From Patescibacteria group bacterium (GTDB lineage Bacteria > Patescibacteriota > Patescibacteriia > JAXHNJ01): a DNA stretch of 64,000 nucleotides. Shown here piece after piece: positions 2,794 through 27,641 of the stretch (within the stretch, counting starts at the first letter, position 1; every line of letters starts with the position of its first letter). The stretch spans positions 13,824-77,823 of the forward strand of contig JBDRMK010000017.1 of NCBI GenBank assembly GCA_043812155.1, written 5' to 3'. Both the position numbers and the translations under genes were made by a program. Under the pieces are notes generated by a model. It was given only the letters and a program-made list of their open reading frames with translations. It ran no database searches and was not told where the DNA came from.

Positions 2794-4164
2794 CTACATC
2801 ACGCCGATATACTCATAAAAAACATCTCCCGCCTGGTTTAAACCCGTGCCTTCAGACATTGTATCCTGGGTATATAAGATATAATCTTCGCGGCTTTCCG
2901 TATTTAAGGCATGGAGCCTGATTATTTCCTTATTTTGGCCCTCCGTAACTTCATAAGTCTGATAGATAATGGTCTGGCTGTCCGGCCACCAGGCCTTGAA
3001 TTCGCCCTGATCGCTCAATTTGACCTTTTCTTTCGACTTAATATCATAAAGAATTAAGCCTTGGTCATAATAGGCGTCATTTAAAAGGATTATTTTATTT
3101 CCGTCCGGAGAGATGATCCGGCCGCCATAACCCACCTGATCGGTTTTTTCATTGATAAAAATATCCTGGAATTGACCGGTCTTCAGATCTAATTTTTGCA
3201 GCTGGGTCCGTAAAATCGTCTCCCCTTCTTTGACGACCTGCGGGCCCCGGTTCACTAGGGCAAAACCTTGCGCCGGATAAAAACCAAGCAGTACGATAAT
3301 ATCTTTATCCTCATTTTCCTCGATTGAAGAATAATAGATTTCAGAGGAAGTCATGTTTTCTAAATTTAAGGCGTAAAGCCCGCCGGGATTTAGAACATAA
3401 TCATCGCTAACTTGATCTTGCGCGAAAATATAAACCAAAGAATTGTCATCGGAAAAAGAGACCGGCAAATACAGATCAAAACTATTTTCTTGATGCTTGA
3501 TACTGGTGGGATCGAATTCCAAAACATCACCTTCATCCAGATCTTTTATTTTTAACAAATAATTAAAGCCGGAAATATCGTCGGTTTGGCTGACGGTCTT
3601 ATTTTCCAGATAAGCAATGATATTTTTATCAGACGACAGGATAAAATCAGTGCCGAACGCGACCGGCGGGAGAAAAAAATCTTTTTTTTCACCGTCTACG
3701 CCCACCGCCCGGTTTTCGGCTTGGCCGAATTCCGTCACGATAATGATGCTGCCTGCAAGATAAGGATAGGCCGTTTCATAGGTCAGATCTTCGGCCGAGT
3801 AAAATTTGAATTTTTTCTCGCCCTTCTCGCCCGTCAGAAAAAAATTTGTCTGATATTTATTTTCGCCCAAGCTGTTAACCTCCATTACTTCTTTTTCCGC
3901 GTAGATCAACAGGTTCTGTCCGCTAATTTCTTGGTAGGTGTCAACATTCTCTCCCTTGGCGGAAAAATAGGAAATATCAAGGCCCTCTTTTTTTGTTTCA
4001 TTATTTTTGGCGTTTTTGTGGAAATAAAAAAAACCTCCCAGAGCCACGAACATCAGCAAAAAGATCACCAGCGGCAGTATAAATTTGATATCTTTATCTG
4101 CTATACTTTTATTTTTGGGCATAAATGATCTACTTTTTTTTGCCTTCAATGATCTCGGCGGCAA
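2794..4164 (-). CDS. Membrane-anchored WD40/TolB-like beta-propeller protein inserted between fusA and tuf
   Basis: 456-aa ORF with an N-terminal TM helix ([20 protein letters not shown]) followed by PD40/TolB-like repeats ([23 protein letters not shown]). No clear orthologue recognised. Confidence 0.5.
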
Positions 4165-6205
4165 TGTGGGCGGAGACCGGCGAGTAATTGGAAAATTCCA
4201 TATTATAGGAAGCGCGGCCCTGGCTCATGGAACGCAATGAAGTGGCATAGCCGAACATGGTCGCCAAGGGCACGTCCGCGTCAATTATTTTCGAGTTGCC
4301 GCGGTCACGCATGTTCTTTATATGGGCTCTTTTGGAATTCAAGTCGCCGATGATGTCTCCCATGAATTTTTCCGGGGTGACCACTTCCACTTTCATGATC
4401 GGCTCAAGCAATATAGGCTTGGCTTTTTTGGCGGCCGCCTGCAAGGCCATGGACCCGGCGATCTTAAAAGCGGCTTCCGAAGAATCAACTTCATGATAAG
4501 TGCCGTCAAATACCGTCACCTTAATATCAACCATGGGGTAGCCGGCCAAGACGCCGTTATCCAGGGCTTCCTTGACCCCTTTTTGGATCGGCAGGATGTA
4601 TTCCTTGGGAATGGTGCCGCCTTTTACCTCATCCACGAATTCAAAGCCTTTGTTGCCTTTCTGCTTTTCCACCCGCAAAAAGCAATGGCCGTATTGGCCG
4701 CGGCCGCCGGATTGCTTGATATATTTGCCTTCCGCCTCCGCCGTCTGAGTGATCGTTTCCTTGTAGGCGACCTGCGGCTGGCCGACATTGGCCTCCACCT
4801 TGAATTCCCGCTTCATCCGGTCCACCAGGATTTCCAAATGCAGCTCGCCCATGCCGGAAATGATCGTCTGGTTGATCTCTTCGTCTGACTTAACCTTAAA
4901 AGTCGGGTCTTCCTGCATCAGCTTAGCCAAGGCAAAACCCATTTTTTCCTGGTCCGCCTTAGTCTTCGGCTCAATAGCCACGGAAATGACCGGTTCGGGG
5001 AAAACGATATTTTCCAAAGTAATGGGGTTATTTTCATCGCATAAAGTATCGCCAGTGGTCGTGTTTTTCAAGCCCACCGCCGCGGCGATATCGCCGGCAT
5101 AAACTTCTTTCACTTCTTCCCGGTGGTTGGCGTGAAGTCTTACGATACGGCCGACTCTTTCTTTTTTATCGGTGCGCGTGTTCAAAACATAGGAACCGGC
5201 GGCCAGCGTGCCGGAATAGACCCGGAAAAAAGATAAAGTGCCGACAAAAGGATCCGTGGCCACTTTAAAAGCCAGGGCGGAAAATGACTCTTCATCGCTT
5301 GTTTTCCGGACGATCTTATTTTCCGTCCGGGGCTCAAAACCTTCGATCGGAGGGACTTCCAAAGGCGAAGGAAGATAATCATTGACCGCGTCCAGCATGA
5401 ACTGCACCCCTTTATTCTTTAAGGCCGAGCCGCAAAGCACGGGAAAAAGCTTATGAGCGATGGTCGCCTGGCGCAGGATTTTTTTCATTTCGGAAACGTC
5501 AGGCTCTTTGCCTTCCAAATATTCATGCAGTAATTTATCATTCTGCTCACAGATCGCTTCCACCATTTGATGGCGGTACTCTTCCACTTTTTCTTTCATC
5601 TCTTCAGGCACCTCGGTATCCTCCCACTCTTTGCCGTCCTCGTCTTTATAGAGCCGAGCTTTTCTTTCAAACAAATCAATGATCCCTTTAAAATTCTCTT
5701 CCGCCCCGATCGGCAGCTGGATGGGCACGGCGTCCTTGCTCAATCTTTCGTGAATGGAATCCAGATCAAAATAAAAATTGGCGCCCATCCGGTCCATCTT
5801 ATTGACAAAACAGATCAGAGGCACTTTGAATTTTTCCGCCTGGTGCCAGACAGTTTCCGATTGGGGCTCCACTCCGGCCACGCCGTCAAAAACCACCACC
5901 CCGCCGTCCAGGACGCGCAAAGAGCGCTGGACCTCGGCCGTAAAATCAATATGACCGGGCGTGTCAATGATATTTATCCGGTGGTCTTTCCAAAAACAGG
6001 TGGTGGCGGCGGAAGTGATGGTAATGCCGCGCTCCTTTTCCTGCTCCATCCAGTCCATTTCCGCTTCGCCGTTGTGCACTTCGCCGATCTTATGCTTTTT
6101 TCCGGTGTAATACAAAATGCGCTCGGAAACCGTGGTTTTTCCGGCGTCAATGTGAGCTATAATCCCAATATTCCTTGTTTTTTCTAATGAATACTCTCTT
6201 GCCAT
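4130..6205 (-). CDS. fusA: Elongation factor G
   Basis: 691 aa with [17 protein letters not shown] and NKMD motifs and a full EF-G domain set. Starts [25 protein letters not shown]. Confidence 0.97.
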
Positions 6206-6220
6206 AATTCAAAATTTCCC

Positions 6221-6310
6221 TTATTTTATTTTACTCATCCTGAGCCGCGTCGAAGGATGAGCGATAATGCCGATATTTCTCGTTTTTTCTAATGAATACT
6301 CTCTGGCCAT
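6221..6310 (-). pseudogene. Diverged duplicate of the fusA 5' end (first 18 codons), truncated
   Basis: Reverse-complement reads ATGGCCAGAGAGTATTCATTAGAAAAAACGAGAAATATCGGCATTATCGCTCAT... = [18 protein letters not shown], then diverges into PSTRLRMSKIK*. It differs from the real fusA start at 7 synonymous third positions and no replacement sites. There is no SD upstream. Confidence 0.5.
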
Positions 6311-6344
6311 AATAAAAAAAGACTTTTGTTAATTATTGATAATA

Positions 6345-6881
6345 TTATTGGCTTGCCTGAGCCTCTCTTATAAAACCCTCTAGTTGGCCAAAAATATATT
6401 TAAAAGCGGCTTTAACTTCTTCTGAATCTGGATCCTTACCTATTGTTTCCTCTTTTCTTGGATTTATCTTTTCTTTCAGCAACTCGTCCAAACTGCTTCT
6501 TAGAAGCGAGTCTCCAACTGTGAGTTCGTAAGCTTCTCTTAGCTTAGCTTGATACTTACTGTTTAAATCGTTAGAGCCTTCAATTTTTCTTAAATGGTCT
6601 GGGTCAATTTCCGTTATTCTTTTACCGGTCATTTTTTTAACTATAGCGTTAACCTTATCTATCTTATCAATCTTATCTATTTCTTCTTGACGGCGTTCTA
6701 TTTCTTTAGGAGTTACCGGCCTTCTTAATTCTCTTGCCGCATAGGTATTTAAATCATCTATTGAATCTTCAATTGATCCAAGATTACCCTTTTTACGGGC
6801 TTCCTCAAATTTCTTAGTCATTCCTTCTCTTTCTCTTTGTTCTTCTGGCTCAATCGCGGAGAATTCTTTATTTTCTGCCAT
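6345..6881 (-). CDS. Hypothetical acidic protein, paralog 1 of a tandem pair inserted in the str operon
   Basis: 178 aa. N-terminus MAENKEFSAIEPEEQREREGMTKKFEEARKKG parallels the neighbouring ORF (MNEGKEFKLISPEEKNRIEGVTPEFEEARMGK). AT-richer than the flanking ribosomal genes. Confidence 0.6.
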   Translation of the reverse strand: MAENKEFSAIEPEEQREREGMTKKFEEARKKGNLGSIEDSIDDLNTYAARELRRPVTPKEIERRQEEIDKIDKIDKVNAIVKKMTGKRITEIDPDHLRKIEGSNDLNSKYQAKLREAYELTVGDSLLRSSLDELLKEKINPRKEETIGKDPDSEEVKAAFKYIFGQLEGFIREAQASQ

Positions 6882-6935
6882 ATGTTTTAATAATTTATCT
6901 TATACTCTTCTATATAAATCTTAAATGAATATTTG

Positions 6936-7436
6936 TCAAATCTGCTGCTGAAATTCCCTCATTTTATTAAGAATCTCTTCGGTCTCATTTTGGAGATGCC
7001 AAAAATGCGATAGATCATATCTCTCTTCCATTGTCGACTCTAATAATTCATTGTACCTCATCAAGCACGACGTGTAGGAATCCTGAACTTCCATAAGTCT
7101 TTTGGAATGTTCGACCCCCGCTACCGCCCTAATTTCATCCCATAAGACACCACATGCCGTCAGTTTCTCGCGGGCGTTTTGTATTGCCTCTTTAATATCA
7201 TTTATTTCTCGTAAAGTATTCCTAGCGCTCAAAAACTCATTAACTTTGCTGTCGAGTTTCACTTTCATCGCCACCGCACTTTCAAAACGCCGCTCATACG
7301 TTGAGGCACTTTTGTCTTCAACAAATGCATCTATTGCCCGTTTTCCCATTCTTGCTTCCTCAAACTCTGGAGTTACTCCCTCTATTCTATTCTTTTCCTC
7401 AGGGCTAATCAGTTTGAATTCTTTTCCTTCATTCAT
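6936..7436 (-). CDS. Hypothetical protein, paralog 2 of the tandem pair
   Basis: 166 aa. Shares the N-terminal motif M-x-E-x-KEF-x-I-x-PEE-x-R-x-EG-x-T-x-x-FEEAR with the 6345-6881 ORF. Confidence 0.6.
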   Translation of the reverse strand: MNEGKEFKLISPEEKNRIEGVTPEFEEARMGKRAIDAFVEDKSASTYERRFESAVAMKVKLDSKVNEFLSARNTLREINDIKEAIQNAREKLTACGVLWDEIRAVAGVEHSKRLMEVQDSYTSCLMRYNELLESTMEERYDLSHFWHLQNETEEILNKMREFQQQI

Positions 7437-7468
7437 AACAATTATATTAGTGCCTTATTAACTAATAT

Positions 7469-7939
7469 TTATCTCCGGCCAAAATGAGCGAAAGCGCGGT
7501 TGGCTTCGGCCATCCGGTGGACATCCTCGCGTTTGGCCATGGCCGCCCCGGTTTTCTGGGAAGCGGCGATCAGTTCTTCGGCCAGCTTTTCCGCCATCTC
7601 TTTGCCTTTCTTCTCGCGAGCGGCGCCTAATATCCAGCGGAAAGCGAGAGCCTGCCTCCGGTCGCCTCTCACTTCCATCGGAATTTGGTAATTGGCGCCG
7701 CCGATCCGCTTTGATTTCACCTCCACGGCCGGGGACACGTTTTTTAAAGCGAGGTCAAAAATCTCCAAAGGATCTTTCTTGGTCTTCTCGGAAATTATAT
7801 CAAAGGATTTATAAAATAACCTCTGGGCCGTGGACTTTTTCCCTTGGCGCATGACCTGATTGATGAACTTGGCGATCACTACGCTTGAAAACTTGGGATC
7901 AGCCGCGATTTTTCTTTTTTTGGCTTGTTTTGATCTCAT
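7469..7939 (-). CDS. rpsG: 30S ribosomal protein S7
   Basis: S7-like sequence (RIGGANYQIPMEVRGDRRQALAFRWI). Start chosen at Met50 of the listed ORF (MRSKQAKKRK...), which abuts the rpsL stop. Confidence 0.85.
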   Translation of the reverse strand: MRSKQAKKRKIAADPKFSSVVIAKFINQVMRQGKKSTAQRLFYKSFDIISEKTKKDPLEIFDLALKNVSPAVEVKSKRIGGANYQIPMEVRGDRRQALAFRWILGAAREKKGKEMAEKLAEELIAASQKTGAAMAKREDVHRMAEANRAFAHFGRR

Positions 7940-7940
7940 A

Positions 7941-8366
7941 TTATTTCTTCTCCTTTTCCCGTTTGGCGCCGTAAAGGCTGCGGCCCTGTTTTCTCCCCTC
8001 AACGCCCAGGGAATCATAAACCCCGCGCACGATGTGATAACGCACGCCTGGCAGGTCTTTAACCCGGCCGCCACGGACCAAGACAATGGAATGCTCCTGT
8101 AAATTATGGCCCACGCCGGGGATATAAGCGGTCACTTCCTGGCCATTGGACAGCCTGACCCGGGCGATCTTGCGCAAAGCGGAATTAGGCTTTTTAGGCG
8201 TGGTCGTGGTCACTTTTAAGCAGACGCCCCGCTTGAACGGGCTGCCATGGGCTAATTTGGTCCGGCGCCTTTTAATGGTGTCCAAGACGGTTTCCAAGGC
8301 CGGAGTCTTGGTTTTTCTTTTCAGGGATTTCCTGCCCTTTCTTATTAGCTGACTGATGGTTGGCAT
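7941..8366 (-). CDS. rpsL: 30S ribosomal protein S12
   Basis: 141 aa starting [13 protein letters not shown], with the [11 protein letters not shown]12 signature. Confidence 0.92.
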
Positions 8367-8728
8367 AATTGATTATATTTTAGCAAATATTATTTATTAT
8401 TTCAATAAAAGGTATTAAAACCCTAGAGCAAGCCCTGGACTCAATTGCCGCAGCAAACTGGAGGGATATTAAGCCTTTTGATGCCTTCGCTCGTTCGGAA
8501 AAGAAAATGCTTTTTCTTTTTACTCGCTCGCTCGGCAATAAAAAAACCTCTTAACGCTAACGAGGATTCCTTGTTGATAATATAGCAGAAAGAGACTAAA
8601 AATGTCAAATCTAGCTTAAATTCTGGAAAATCTGCTCAGAAAGCTAGCTATCCAAAATTAATTTTGGCCTCATTGAGTCCTGCCCGCCGTAGCCCCGAGC
8701 GAAGTCGAGGGGCGAAGGCGGGTCAAAT

Positions 8729-9358
8729 CTAGCCGAAAATACGGAAAATTGCCTGAGAAAAAAAGTTAAAAAGGCCGGCAAACAGGCCAAGATTTAAGAT
8801 CCGGTCCAAAATAATGATAAATAGAAGTATCATCGGCCCGGACTTTTCCAGCCTTAATTTAAAATTATCAAGAGAAGGCGGCAAAATTTTCATTAAGATC
8901 TTTGAGCCGTCCAAAGGCGGAACAGGAATAAGGTTAAAAACCATCAGGATAATATTGATGTAAATAAGAGTGAAAAGAAAATAGACCAAAAGATTTTCCG
9001 GGCCCAGGAAGGCCAAAAATTTAAGGGCCAGGCCGAAAATAAAAATCTGGGCCAAATTGGAAAGCGGGCCGGCCGCGGAAACAAAAACTTCGCCCCATTT
9101 CTGATTCTTAAGATTATAAGGATTGACCGGCACCGGTTTGCCGTAGCCAAAACCGACCAGCAATAAAAAAAGCAGTCCCCAGAGATCAAGATGGGCCAGA
9201 GGATTCAAAGTGAGACGGCCGGAATTCTTGGCGGTGGGATCGCCGGCGAGATTGGCGGCGAAAGCGTGGGAAAACTCGTGGATCGTGATGCCGATCAAAA
9301 TCGCCGCCAGCCAAATGAGGAAAAATACCGGCTCAGAAAAAAGTAAATTGATTATCAT
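8729..9358 (-). CDS. Site-2 protease family (peptidase M50) membrane zinc metalloprotease
   Basis: 209 aa, multi-TM. HEFSHAF matches the HExxH motif characteristic of M50/SpoIVFB-like proteases. Confidence 0.65.
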   Translation of the reverse strand: MIINLLFSEPVFFLIWLAAILIGITIHEFSHAFAANLAGDPTAKNSGRLTLNPLAHLDLWGLLFLLLVGFGYGKPVPVNPYNLKNQKWGEVFVSAAGPLSNLAQIFIFGLALKFLAFLGPENLLVYFLFTLIYINIILMVFNLIPVPPLDGSKILMKILPPSLDNFKLRLEKSGPMILLFIIILDRILNLGLFAGLFNFFSQAIFRIFG

Positions 9359-26890: not shown

Positions 26891-26947
26891 GGACGCCACT
26901 AAAGTGGCTATGAAGATAAACTTCCCAGCGAATTCATTCGCGTACGC
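26891..26947 (+). repeat. REP-like palindromic repeat unit (GGACGCCACTnAAGTGGCTATGAAG...CAGCGAATTCATTCGCGTACGC), copy A
   Basis: Two palindromic modules (GCCACT..AGTGGC and GCGAAT..ATTCGC/CGCGTACGCG). Overlaps the 3' end of the transposase gene. Copies recur at 27519-27641, 30272-30330 and 53950-53972. Confidence 0.7.
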
Positions 26948-27473
26948 TTTTGCCAAAATTATTTTTAATAAATTCCTCGTCGGTTATTTGAATTACCGAT
27001 TGAATATAATTATCAATATTTCCCTTACCTATTATTTTTATCAACGAGGAATAACTTGAAAATGGGTATTTTTCTAACTTCTTAAGCGTTTTCACCTCCT
27101 TATGCTTTAAGGGATTTCCCGCGACGTAACCGATAACTTTGCTCAACAAAATATCACTCTCAATTAAATACACGTGGTATTCACCCCAAACTGGTTTTTT
27201 GTTGCCTGTTATTTTATTCAAGCGGTAAGCGCTAACACCATAAATATGTTTTAAAATTTTGGGGATAATCCCGGCATTATTATAAAATGAAACAAAATGA
27301 TAATGATTTGACATTATGCTAAAATTAAAATCTTTTAGTTTATTAATTCCAATCGCGGATTTTATCTGATTAAGTATCAAGTTTTTCTTCAAAAATGTGT
27401 CAAAAAAATGATAGCGATAGGCGGTTGGAACGGTTATAAAATAATATGAATGGTTGACAAAATATCTGGACAT
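26934..27473 (-). mobile_element. IS200/IS605-like HUH (Y1) transposase, REP-associated tyrosine transposase (RAYT) type
   Basis: 179 aa with the HUH motif in SNHYHFV and catalytic Tyr in YVAGNPLKH. Flanked on both sides by REP-like palindromes. Confidence 0.6.
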
Positions 27474-27518
27474 AAATAATCTATTAATACTGATCTAATC
27501 GAATAAATTTTTAATGGC

Positions 27519-27641
27519 GGACGCCACTGAAGTGGCTATGAAGGTAAACTTCTCAGCGAATTCATTCGCGTACGCGTTTTGATTTTCGGACGCCACTGAA
27601 GTGGCTGTGAAAAAATAGGCAGGAAAGTGGCTATGAAAAAA
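27519..27641 (+). repeat. REP-like repeat cluster, copy B (module1-module2-module1'-partial)
   Basis: GGACGCCACTGAAGTGGCTATGAAGGTAAACTTCTCAGCGAATTCATTCGCGTACGCG, then GGACGCCACTGAAGTGGCTGTGAAA and GGAAAGTGGCTATGAAAAAA. Confidence 0.7.

Follow-up and report, generated by a model that had tools for sequence, protein, structure and literature searches.

A cut-off second fusA start at the rpsG-fusA junction of a Patescibacteria group bacterium: a candidate recombination joint in an accessory-gene hot spot

Genes and repeats between rpsG and fusA

The junction between the genes for ribosomal protein S7 and EF-G is tight in model organisms. In the 64-kb window (the whole stretch of DNA analyzed here), the ORF list places on the minus strand, in this order, rpsL (7941..8366), rpsG (ribosomal protein S7, 7469..7939), ORF166 (6936..7436), ORF178 (6345..6881), a short ORF (6221..6310), and fusA (EF-G, 691 aa, 4130..6205). 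The features that a first-pass annotation had described between rpsG and fusA were all found, at the same positions on the minus strand. The rpsG gene is the upstream anchor of the junction and has tblastn matches in 176 related loci. The fusA protein has 75% amino acid identity to the best species-representative genomes and 90% to L134, one of two sister-species assemblies. Exact-protein look-ups gave no strain variants of the window's rpsG, fusA, or ORF178.

The spacer ORFs appear to belong to the same transcript as the ribosomal genes. A promoter-like site 5' of rpsL (8377..8405, minus strand; TTGAAA-17-TAAAAT with TG) was recognized by its match to the consensus, and the transcript of rpsL through fusA, spacer ORFs included, likely starts there. 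No terminator-like site was found on the gene strand between the spacer ORFs and the ribosomal genes, so the co-transcription proposed in the annotation is plausible.

The working start of fusA is preceded by a second start that is cut off. A direct-repeat search identified two copies of a 62-nt sequence, both on the minus strand, which are identical at 54 of 62 bases and spaced 105 nt apart, and this is the strongest short-range direct repeat of the 64-kb window. The upstream copy (copy A, 6258..6319) consists of about 8 nt of leader and fusA codons 1-18, while the downstream copy (copy B, 6153..6214) is the working fusA start. A second copy of the first 18 fusA codons between the ORFs and the real start, as annotated, is thus present. 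It was said to run out of frame, but the fragment continues in frame with fusA through 11 further codons and ends at a TAA. The result is an intact upstream ORF of 29 codons (6221..6310), encoding 18 fusA residues and PSTRLRMSKIK. Its ATG lies in frame exactly 35 codons upstream of the real ATG, and its stop lies 15 nt before the real ATG. It starts from an AT-rich leader without a Shine-Dalgarno sequence, which is the usual start context in this genome. Programmed translational bypass from one copy to the other was considered and rejected. There is no stop after His18, the gap is 105-132 nt, and copy B starts from an ATG and a leader of its own. The bypass in T4 gene 60 takes off right before a stop, crosses about 50 nt, and lands in sequence that lacks a separate start.

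The two starts of the window differ like two functional alleles. In the coding part, six of the six internal differences between the copies are at third positions and synonymous (chance 5e-4). Seven synonymous differences had been counted originally; six of them stand, while the seventh (CAT/CAC) is the base where homology ends. The starts have a dN of 0 and a dS of about 1.4, which rejects a recent duplication in place with subsequent neutral decay, and the annotation was right both on this point and in seeing two different fusA alleles here. A recombination joint is expected to leave a duplicated segment whose differences are those between alleles and not those of decay. Gene conversion between the two starts was dropped as an idea because the synonymous divergence is saturated.

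A hairpin and a short leader lie between the cut-off codons and the working start. The hairpin that had been noted after the fusA fragment exists; it is a 9-bp stem-loop (6233..6262, minus strand) with the sequence GCUCAUCCU...AGGAUGAGU (6262-6233) and a folding energy of -12.6 kcal/mol (z -2.8). Its 5' arm has its first bases within the end of the fusA-derived sequence (GCUCA). The GCTCA of fusA codons 17-18 is therefore both the end of the fusA homology and the start of the arm that is complementary to AGGAUGAGU, as expected for a joint at microhomology. The leader of the working start (6206..6232, minus strand) is AT-rich and contains the upstream ORF stop TAA, a weak AAGGGA, and an in-frame stop 3 nt before the ATG. 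Rfam gave no matches for the leader or for either of two hairpins. The whole leader does not fold better than shuffled sequences (z 0.6 and -1.0), and no alternative RNA pairing or covariation was found in it. Features of an attenuator are absent: the stem is not followed by a U-tract, this strand has no terminator-like site, no alternative pairing is conserved, and no sequestration of the working start is seen. The hairpin has no second copy in the 64-kb window, unlike a REP element associated with a RAYT gene. A RAYT-like gene is present at 26934-27473, flanked by a different hairpin. A second partial duplication of a gene end in the window borders a hairpin that has the same loop motif. The idea that the TTCGAC..GCTCAGG hairpin motif is generally linked to such duplications was rejected, since none of its further occurrences in 1.76 Mb of related loci is flanked by one.

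The proteins encoded by ORF166 and ORF178

ORF166 and ORF178 are similar only in a short N-terminal module. ORF166 (minus strand) begins 32 nt after rpsG and encodes a predicted charged, all-helical protein of 166 aa; ORF178 (minus strand) encodes a predicted charged helical protein of 178 aa. BLASTP and codon comparison delimit a module of 29 codons at 7350..7436 in ORF166 and at 6795..6881 in ORF178, both on the minus strand. The annotated N-terminal likeness of about 30 residues is borne out, with 17 of 29 residues identical (E 4e-7) and synonymous differences at 5 of the 17 conserved codons. Past residue 29 the proteins have no similarity. The description of the two as tandem paralogs fails for this reason, since homology over most of their length is lacking and ORF166 is missing from the sister species. 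Two further descriptions hold in part. The proteins are acidic only mildly (pI 5.1 and 5.3) and are better called highly charged. The genes are AT-richer than the flanking ribosomal genes (GC 0.36 and 0.41, against 0.50-0.54), but they are inside the range of genes in the 64-kb window (mean 0.446, sd 0.055, minimum 0.31).

Homologues of the two proteins are nearly absent from the databases. Two single-sequence searches and one profile search covered 5.8e9 proteins, and a full HMMER scan covered 1.84e9 representatives, making about 7.6 billion proteins. Among the 5.8e9 proteins, ORF166 matched only itself. The sole homologue of ORF178 is the ORF at the same locus of L134 and L197 (P0003). The orthologues have 50% amino acid identity, the C-terminal half is conserved, and dN/dS is 0.34. 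Judged by this ratio and by the orthologue at the same place, ORF178 is a real, fast-evolving, lineage-restricted gene, and its predicted product is a soluble, charged helical protein. As the first-pass annotation implied, accessory genes restricted to a lineage are present at the junction.

Profile and structure searches indicated no function for either ORF. Pfam, PHROG, PADLOC, and NCBIfam gave only sub-threshold noise, as did a sequence-profile search of the PDB. Weak matches to cyclodipeptide synthase (E 0.005-0.02, far below the cut-off) were discarded and are at odds with the all-helix prediction. Single-sequence AlphaFold models have pLDDT of 62-65 (ORF166 is helical, at 62), and a Foldseek search of the PDB with these models gave no fold match (best E 1.3). 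IMG/VR contained no tblastn-confirmed relative and PHROG no matching family, so neither collection holds relatives that would mark the genes as phage cargo. Toxin, immunity, and secretion-associated domains, which a polymorphic toxin system would have, are absent from the Pfam, PADLOC, NCBIfam, PHROG, PDB, and fold results. The corresponding gap of L003, L005, and L009 also contains acidic ORFs, which were tried as remote relatives, and HMM searches found no similarity.

Related loci and the origin of the repeat unit

The arrangement found in the window is also present in a sister species. L134 and L197 are independent assemblies from different samples and are 99.3% identical. They have the same pseudo-start, junction, stem arms, and leader as the window and one ORF178 orthologue upstream, while ORF166 is absent. 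The scar in two independent assemblies rules out an artefact or a recent event, and the proviso of the annotation that the fragment might be an assembly error is very unlikely to apply. Assemblers can create short near-repeats, but here 8 of 62 positions differ in a codon-aware pattern, and an artefact or a recent in-situ tandem duplication is scarcely credible. The locus had also been called foreign-looking. It is instead an old locus, common to species whose fusA genes have a synonymous divergence of about 1.0.

A similar scar occurs in a second lineage that has no cargo genes. On an unrelated contig, L111, rpsG is followed by 13 nt, a 22-codon pseudo-start, a hairpin unrelated to that of the window, and the real start. 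The pseudo-start is in frame, with a stop at -18 and a second stop at -6, and CGCU plays the role of GCUCA, since here too the stem's 5' arm starts within sequence derived from fusA. L126, which is 85% identical to L111, has a single tight fusA start and no hairpin. The scar had been taken to mark the arrival of the cargo genes. This does not fit L111, which has a scar without cargo, or L134 and L197, which have an identical scar with one gene only. The scar is therefore not tied to the arrival of those genes. Thirty of the 176 related loci (17%) have more than 300 nt at the rpsG-fusA junction, holding unrelated genes, and the junction is therefore a hot spot.

The repeat unit between rpsG and fusA is best explained, with a somewhat better than even chance, as an old microhomology-type recombination joint in this accessory-gene hot spot. 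The 105-nt unit would join two alternative fusA leader arrangements, one in which fusA follows the upstream gene via a short T-rich leader and one in which a stem-loop and AT-rich leader stand ahead of fusA. A one-sided homologous and microhomology-mediated exchange may have fused the stem-loop, at its 5' arm, to fusA codon 18 (GCTCA), so that one fusA start was severed and the other stayed on the gene. Because the sister species has it, the joint would be old or have spread, and it would be independent of the arrival of ORF166 and ORF178. ORF166 may be a later addition that reused the 29-residue N-terminal module of ORF178. All of the spacer genes would be transcribed from the rpsL promoter. 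Given an initiation context that is normal for a Shine-Dalgarno-poor genome, the cut-off start is probably still translated into a 29-residue peptide, and ribosomes on the upstream ORF would melt the stem-loop and terminate just ahead of the real AUG.

The cut-off start has diverged between the species like a coding sequence. The upstream ORF of L134 and L197 is orthologous, with 38 codons and the same start, frame, and stop as the 29 codons of the window. The stem arms are identical, and the sister species has 27 extra nt in the loop. Between the window and L134 the cut-off copy differs at 11 of 54 nt (P 0.001 against 41% at fourfold sites), with six synonymous and two non-synonymous codon changes, a split that random mutation would give with P 6e-5, and dN/dS is 0.15. 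The start codon, the stop, and the frame are kept through the 27-nt indel, and the leader (6206..6232) has only three differing positions, against the same 41%. A mere scar inherited vertically should have decayed, so this pattern points to selection or to later allele patches and lateral spread.

Conservation of a short upstream ORF between species is expected of a regulatory leader. The cut-off start and stem-loop could thus be a selected translational leader, in which termination-reinitiation sets fusA initiation and could sense EF-G activity. EF-G drives both steps involved, the translocation that carries ribosomes through the stem and their recycling at the upstream stop. The coding-type divergence, the frame kept through the indel, the nearly invariant stem arms and leader, and the normal start context of the upstream ORF all agree with this, and the independent L111 shows the same geometry with the last 9 leader nt identical. 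However, the pseudo-start architecture is seen in only two lineages among about 190 related loci, and no reason is evident for conserving the peptide sequence itself. The rare ATT-AGC codons of L134 resemble an imported allele patch, and the leader offers neither alternative pairing nor covariation nor a fold better than shuffles. There are stops in all three leader frames, and termination does not need an in-frame position. A selected leader is on balance unlikely, with perhaps one chance in five.

Exchange at the fusA start appears to be ongoing. L134 and L197 differ by three SNPs outside the contig end, and all of them lie in one 26-nt stretch at the working start. The L134 pseudo-start has the codons CGA GAG ATT AGC, a combination shared only with the functional start of the distant L037. 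Both observations are consistent with continuing exchange. An apparent link between the copies at codon 2, which is Ala in both copies of the window and Pro in both copies of L134, was dropped because L197 has Pro/Ala.

L111 and L134 have more in common than plain accident predicts. Their stop geometry is exactly the same, and so are the 9 leader nt just before the ATG, TATTAAATT, which occur in two lineages and in none of 186 other fusA leaders. Such likeness would suit a tiny start-replacing cassette, made up of the stem-loop, the leader, and the first 18-22 fusA codons, which moves between genomes. It would integrate via fusA homology and displace the resident start, and since the start of an essential gene is part of it, it could not be lost imprecisely. 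The likeness of the window and L134 modules exceeds that of neutral sites, the pseudo-starts diverge like functional orthologues, as if functional until a recent insertion, and the second gene-end duplication in the window with its shared loop motif also fits. On the other hand, the repeats are separated by only 43 nt in the window and 67-78 nt in L111 and L134, too little to encode anything; there is no recombinase, and ORF166 and ORF178 lie outside the repeats, which is not the structure of an integrative element. The module is single copy in 64 kb, the loop motif recurs in 1.76 Mb of related loci without flanking repeats, and the hairpin of L111 is unrelated to that of the window. A mobile cassette of this kind is therefore very unlikely taken by itself. 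A broader account, in which the cut-off start is a conserved translated upstream ORF that tunes EF-G synthesis to EF-G activity and is possibly such a cassette with at least two entries into fusA, is also improbable, at the same level as the selected leader.

Codon usage suggests which of the two starts is native. The cut-off copy has the host-preferred codon at six of the seven differing codons, and the seventh (ATC vs ATT) is a tie, while the working start uses rare codons, for example GCA, which is 0 of 109 Ala codons in translation genes. The log2 odds that the cut-off copy is native are 9.2 with genome-wide usage and 4.1 against 5'-end usage (range 4.1 to 17.5), a call that rests on seven codons and is confounded by the AT-rich 5' ends of native genes. 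The T-rich leader of the cut-off copy resembles the real fusA leaders of relatives. The balance thus leans modestly, by about three to two, toward the cut-off copy as the original start and toward import of the stem-loop, leader, and working start. Other tests of direction were uninformative, namely segment-wise nearest neighbors (L134 in nearly every fusA segment, with no donor found) and the divergence of L111 from L126. No donor haplotype with the hairpin leader and without the pseudo-start was found. In the search for a homologous anchor and donor tract, the third-position divergence of fusA from L134 was 26% in codons 1-140 and 43% in codons 141-359 (P 0.001).

The first-pass annotation implies the opposite direction, with a foreign fragment and a native fusA start. 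On this reading a donor fragment carrying ORF166, ORF178, and 18 fusA codons was inserted upstream of a native hairpin, leader, and fusA. Geometrically this is just as simple, needing homologous anchoring in rpsG and illegitimate joining at GCTCA. A hairpin and short leader ahead of fusA are a common native arrangement in relatives, and the cargo is AT-richer than the flanking genes. But the scar is separable from the cargo in L111, L134, and L197, and the cut-off copy has its host-preferred codons although the cargo is AT3-rich (ATC at 0 of 24 Ile codons). Hairpin leaders of this type were found only with pseudo-starts. Insertion of a donor fragment is accordingly unlikely, less probable than the selected leader and more probable than the cassette alone.

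Comparison with known systems

The proposed joint resembles products of recombination in other bacteria. In homology-facilitated illegitimate recombination, one end is homologous and the other illegitimate, and the illegitimate end forms at a short microhomology. The process and partial duplications of the homologous segment in E. coli have been described (PMC3240628). As in naturally transformable bacteria, the putative event here has a conserved-gene anchor, a joint at 4-5 nt of microhomology, and a leftover partial, allele-like copy of the end of the anchor gene beside the insert. It differs in that the joint lies inside the start of an essential translation gene and persists as an intact ORF across a species split, and in that anchor and donor are putative. 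In Vibrio cholerae, T6SS effector ends are reported to undergo sequential displacement (PMC5361080). The systems would share repeated recombination at a conserved gene end, displaced fragments, arrays of variable genes, and a short conserved module across variable genes. In the Patescibacteria locus it is the 5' end that is displaced, not the 3' end, the ORF166/ORF178 module is N-terminal and has only 29 residues, and no toxin or immunity domains were detected.

Gene-end insertion and leader control offer further parallels. Integrative elements such as tRNA- and dusA-targeting islands insert into a gene end and rebuild it. They likewise leave a displaced native end and an element-supplied replacement end as direct repeats, but they differ in having an integrase and in carrying their genes between the repeats, where only 43-78 nt lie here. 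Frameshift control of prfB (RF2) is an autoregulated translation-factor leader. As there, and as reported for bacterial upstream-ORF coupling (PMC8092293), a short translated element, putative in this case, stands ahead of a translation-factor gene. By analogy with prfB, the decoding of the element would depend on the factor that it precedes and could set the synthesis of that factor. In contrast to prfB there is no recoding signal, and the feature is found in only two lineages and is known from sequence.

Patescibacteria are thought to depend on DNA uptake. If the recombination joint is real, it is a natural example of one-sided homologous and microhomology recombination inside the most conserved operon of a bacterium, and the S7/EF-G junction would be a gene-insertion hot spot in Patescibacteria. 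ORF166 and ORF178 would make up an orphan protein family with two members, transcribed together with S12, S7, and EF-G. Should the less likely leader reading be true instead, no leader-ORF control element would have been described for EF-G before this one, which would be made from a recycled copy of the start of fusA itself.

The duplicated fusA start and its counterpart in a sister species

The junction between rpsG (ribosomal protein S7) and fusA (EF-G) carries a second, cut-off copy of the fusA start. In the ORF list rpsL (8366-7941) and rpsG (7939-7469), both on the minus strand, are followed on that strand by two orphan ORFs, ORF166 (7436-6936, 3' of rpsG) and ORF178 (6881-6345), and by fusA (6205-4130). 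A 29-codon ORF holding the cut-off start lies at 6310-6221 (minus). Downstream of fusA on the same strand lie tuf and rpsJ, preceded by a 456-aa ORF. This ORF (2794-4164; 442 aa counted from the ATG at 4122) has an N-terminal hydrophobic segment, and it has no family match and no tblastn match in related loci. The second fusA-start copy, the two ORFs, and the hairpin reported by the first-pass annotation are all present, and its interpretation was right in kind: two alleles with third-position synonymous differences, a recombination scar, and accessory genes at the junction.

No short-range repeat in the window is stronger than a 62-nt direct repeat (6258-6319 and 6153-6214; 54 of 62 bases identical; spacing 105 nt), which spans fusA codons 1-18 and some 8 nt of leader. 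All six internal differences are third-position and synonymous (P = 5e-4), while the seventh one counted earlier is the base where homology ends. The ATG of the cut-off copy is exactly 35 codons 5' of the real fusA ATG, and the reading frame is kept to the stop rather than lost as had been described. A 9-bp stem (6262-6233; -12.6 kcal/mol, z -2.8) begins within the last fusA-derived bases. It has no further copies in the 64-kb window and is not followed by a U-tract. No Rfam family matched, the fold of the whole leader is no better than that of shuffled sequence, and the two sequences compared showed no leader covariation.

A metagenome scan with the EF-G N-terminal peptide as query yielded 115 contigs. 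The related locus L134 represents a sister species, its fusA being 80% identical to that of the window in nucleotides and 90% in protein. Its order is rpsG, a single 158-aa ORF, the pseudo-start, the junction and stem, the leader, and the real start, which is 132 nt (44 codons) 3' of the pseudo-start. The junction GCTCA|TCCTTCGAC and the stem arms are those of the window, the leader after the stem is the same, and the L134 loop is longer by 27 nt. L197, an independent assembly from a different sample with 99.3% identity to L134, shows this layout too, so the scar is not an assembly artefact, a possibility raised in the annotation. The scar is at least as old as the split between the two species, or else has moved between them.

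ORF166, ORF178, and the variable junction

The two orphan ORFs share an N-terminal module. They are identical at 17 of the first 29 residues (E = 4e-7) and no similarity was found beyond these, so the proposed tandem paralogs have this module in common but are not full paralogs. Five conserved codons of the module differ synonymously, and it is therefore maintained at the protein level. The proteins are soluble, highly charged, and acidic as stated earlier, though only mildly (pI 5.1 and 5.3), and the predicted fold of both is all-helical at low confidence. The genes are AT-richer (GC 0.36 and 0.41) than the flanking ribosomal genes, yet inside the spread of window genes. In NCBI both are annotated as hypothetical proteins from a Patescibacteria group MAG. 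Searches of protein families, defence, phage, PDB, and folds gave no meaningful match, and neither ORF was found in IMG/VR. Searches of 5.8 billion clustered proteins and of 1.84 billion representatives gave exactly one homologue for ORF178; protein searches found none for ORF166. The 158-aa ORF of L134 is 50% identical to ORF178, with the C-terminal half conserved, and L134/L197 have no ORF166 counterpart. Between the window and L134 (Nei-Gojobori), ORF178 has a dS of 1.39 and dN/dS of 0.34, with 63, 47, and 84 differences at the three codon positions; fusA has a dS of 1.0 and dN/dS of 0.06, and rpsG a dS of 0.74. ORF178 is a genuine, fast-evolving gene. Upstream of rpsL there is a promoter-like site, and no terminator-like site was found on the gene strand from rpsL to fusA, so both ORFs are likely co-transcribed with the ribosomal genes.

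The rpsG-fusA junction is a hot spot for unrelated genes. In related loci with both genes the median gap is 84 nt, and 30 of 176 gaps exceed 300 nt. BLASTP clustering of the genes in these long gaps gave unrelated small genes, mainly singletons with few small families. The scar at the window junction is old and common to L134/L197. Read by eye, the sequences of the genes in these gaps suggest, among others, HicA/HicB-like pairs, a four-helix-bundle protein of a type known from rRNA intervening sequences, a GreA-like and a tRNA-binding-like protein, small membrane proteins (one family), and pilin-like proteins. They occur in other Patescibacteria (L150, L169, L025, L093, L083/L095/L160/L163/L182, and L086/L172/L178). 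The fusA-tuf gap is likewise variable, with lengths of about 0.1 to 5 kb in relatives.

Origin of the joint

Among about 190 loci, an upstream fusA-start copy is found only in L134/L197 and in one unrelated contig, L111. The order in L111 is rpsG, 13 nt, a 22-codon pseudo-start, a 13-bp hairpin (-29 kcal/mol) unrelated to that of the window, the leader, and the real start, with no cargo gene between rpsG and fusA. The earlier view that the scar marks the arrival of cargo is probably wrong, as L111 has the same kind of scar without it. In this groundwater contig the fusA start forms a 67-nt direct repeat (2790-2988; 93% identical, 132 nt apart). L126, 85% identical to L111, has a single tight fusA start and no hairpin. 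The 5' stem arm starts inside fusA-derived bases in the window (GCUCA) and in L111 (CGCU), the trace that microhomology-mediated joining to a hairpin already in place would leave. Two native arrangements are common in relatives, a hairpin with a short leader before fusA and a tight T-rich leader before fusA. The simplest model is an exchange between the two that was homologous on one side and illegitimate on the other.

The geometry of the joint is compatible with either direction of the event. The cut-off copy has the host-preferred codon at six of the seven differing codons (GCC, ACG, AGA, GGC, ATC versus ATA, and CAT), and at the seventh, ATC versus ATT, genome-wide usage is tied. Rarer codons stand in the working start; none of the 109 Ala codons of the translation genes is GCA. 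For the cut-off copy as native, the log2 odds sum to 9.2 with genome-wide codon usage as reference, to 17.5 with that of the translation genes, and to 4.1 with that of codons 1-18 of every gene. The last value is important, since the 5' ends of native genes are AT3-rich in this genome; in translation genes, GC3 over codons 1-18 is much below that of the gene bodies. The T-rich leader of the cut-off copy resembles real fusA leaders of relatives. With modest confidence, the working start and hairpin leader are the likelier import. The annotation had taken the fragment as foreign and the working start as native, which is probably wrong, as codon usage points the opposite way.

A second gene-end duplication (8604-8642 and 8722-8760, minus; 39 nt, 77% identical, in-frame stop kept) lies just 5' of the rpsL promoter-like site. 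It consists of the last 32 nt or so of an HExxH membrane-protease-like gene (8729-9358) plus 7 nt of the 3' flank, which recur 118 nt further downstream. Between the two copies lies a strong hairpin (about 8650-8715), and its loop, TCGACTTCGCTC, is similar to that of the fusA hairpin. Intergenic hairpins with variable stems and the loop motif CCTTCGAC(N)2-4GCTCAGG occur in Acidobacteria and Patescibacteria loci (L053, L054, L066, L070, L072, L073, L078, L132, L160, and the window at about 8690); those tested matched no Rfam family. An AT-rich ORF (26934-27473; GC 0.31) matches a REP-associated tyrosine transposase model below cut-off (E = 1.6e-14); ahead of it, a GCCACTTCAGTGGC hairpin occurs two or three times at 69-nt spacing (27508-27611).

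The cut-off copy as an upstream reading frame

The cut-off copy is free of decay. Between the window and L134, 11 of its 54 nt differ, while 22 would be expected at the 41% divergence of fourfold sites (P = 0.001). The codon changes are six synonymous and two non-synonymous (P = 6e-5 for random mutation; dN/dS 0.15), and the ATG, stop, and frame are retained across the 27-nt indel. Synonymous divergence between the copies is saturated, which rules out gene conversion from the working copy. Co-variation of the two copies at codon 2 is only apparent and is broken by L197. Selection on a translated upstream ORF is plausible because starts in AT-rich sequence without a Shine-Dalgarno are the majority here, most genes beginning after similar leaders. 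In the 30 nt upstream of 30 window genes, most, including rpsL and rpsJ, have no Shine-Dalgarno-like sequence.

The explanation that remains beside selection is that allele patches are still being exchanged at this site. L134 and L197 differ at three positions, all within 26 nt at the working start (L134 871-896: leader -7, Pro/Ala at codon 2, and a synonymous change at codon 7) with no other difference over about 1,190 nt, suggesting a recombination patch. The L134 cut-off copy (746-799; Ile5, Ser6 as AGC) has CGA GAG ATT AGC, a combination otherwise found in the distant L037. Of the 136 functional fusA starts whose sixth residue is Ser, that of L037 alone encodes it with AGC, and its neighbouring codons match the L134 pseudo-start.

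The window, L134/L197, and L111 have one geometry in common: the upstream ORF shares the reading frame of the real ATG, its stop lies 15 nt before that ATG, and a second in-frame stop lies 3 nt before it. The last 9 leader nt are identical in L111 and L134 and occur in none of the 186 other fusA leaders; the hairpins of these two loci are unrelated. The stem arms and leader have three differences and one indel between the window and L134 and are more conserved than neighbouring synonymous sites, and are therefore under constraint, whatever their origin. Overall, these comparisons leave one intriguing feature, a conserved, in-frame, initiation-competent upstream ORF built from the start of fusA itself.
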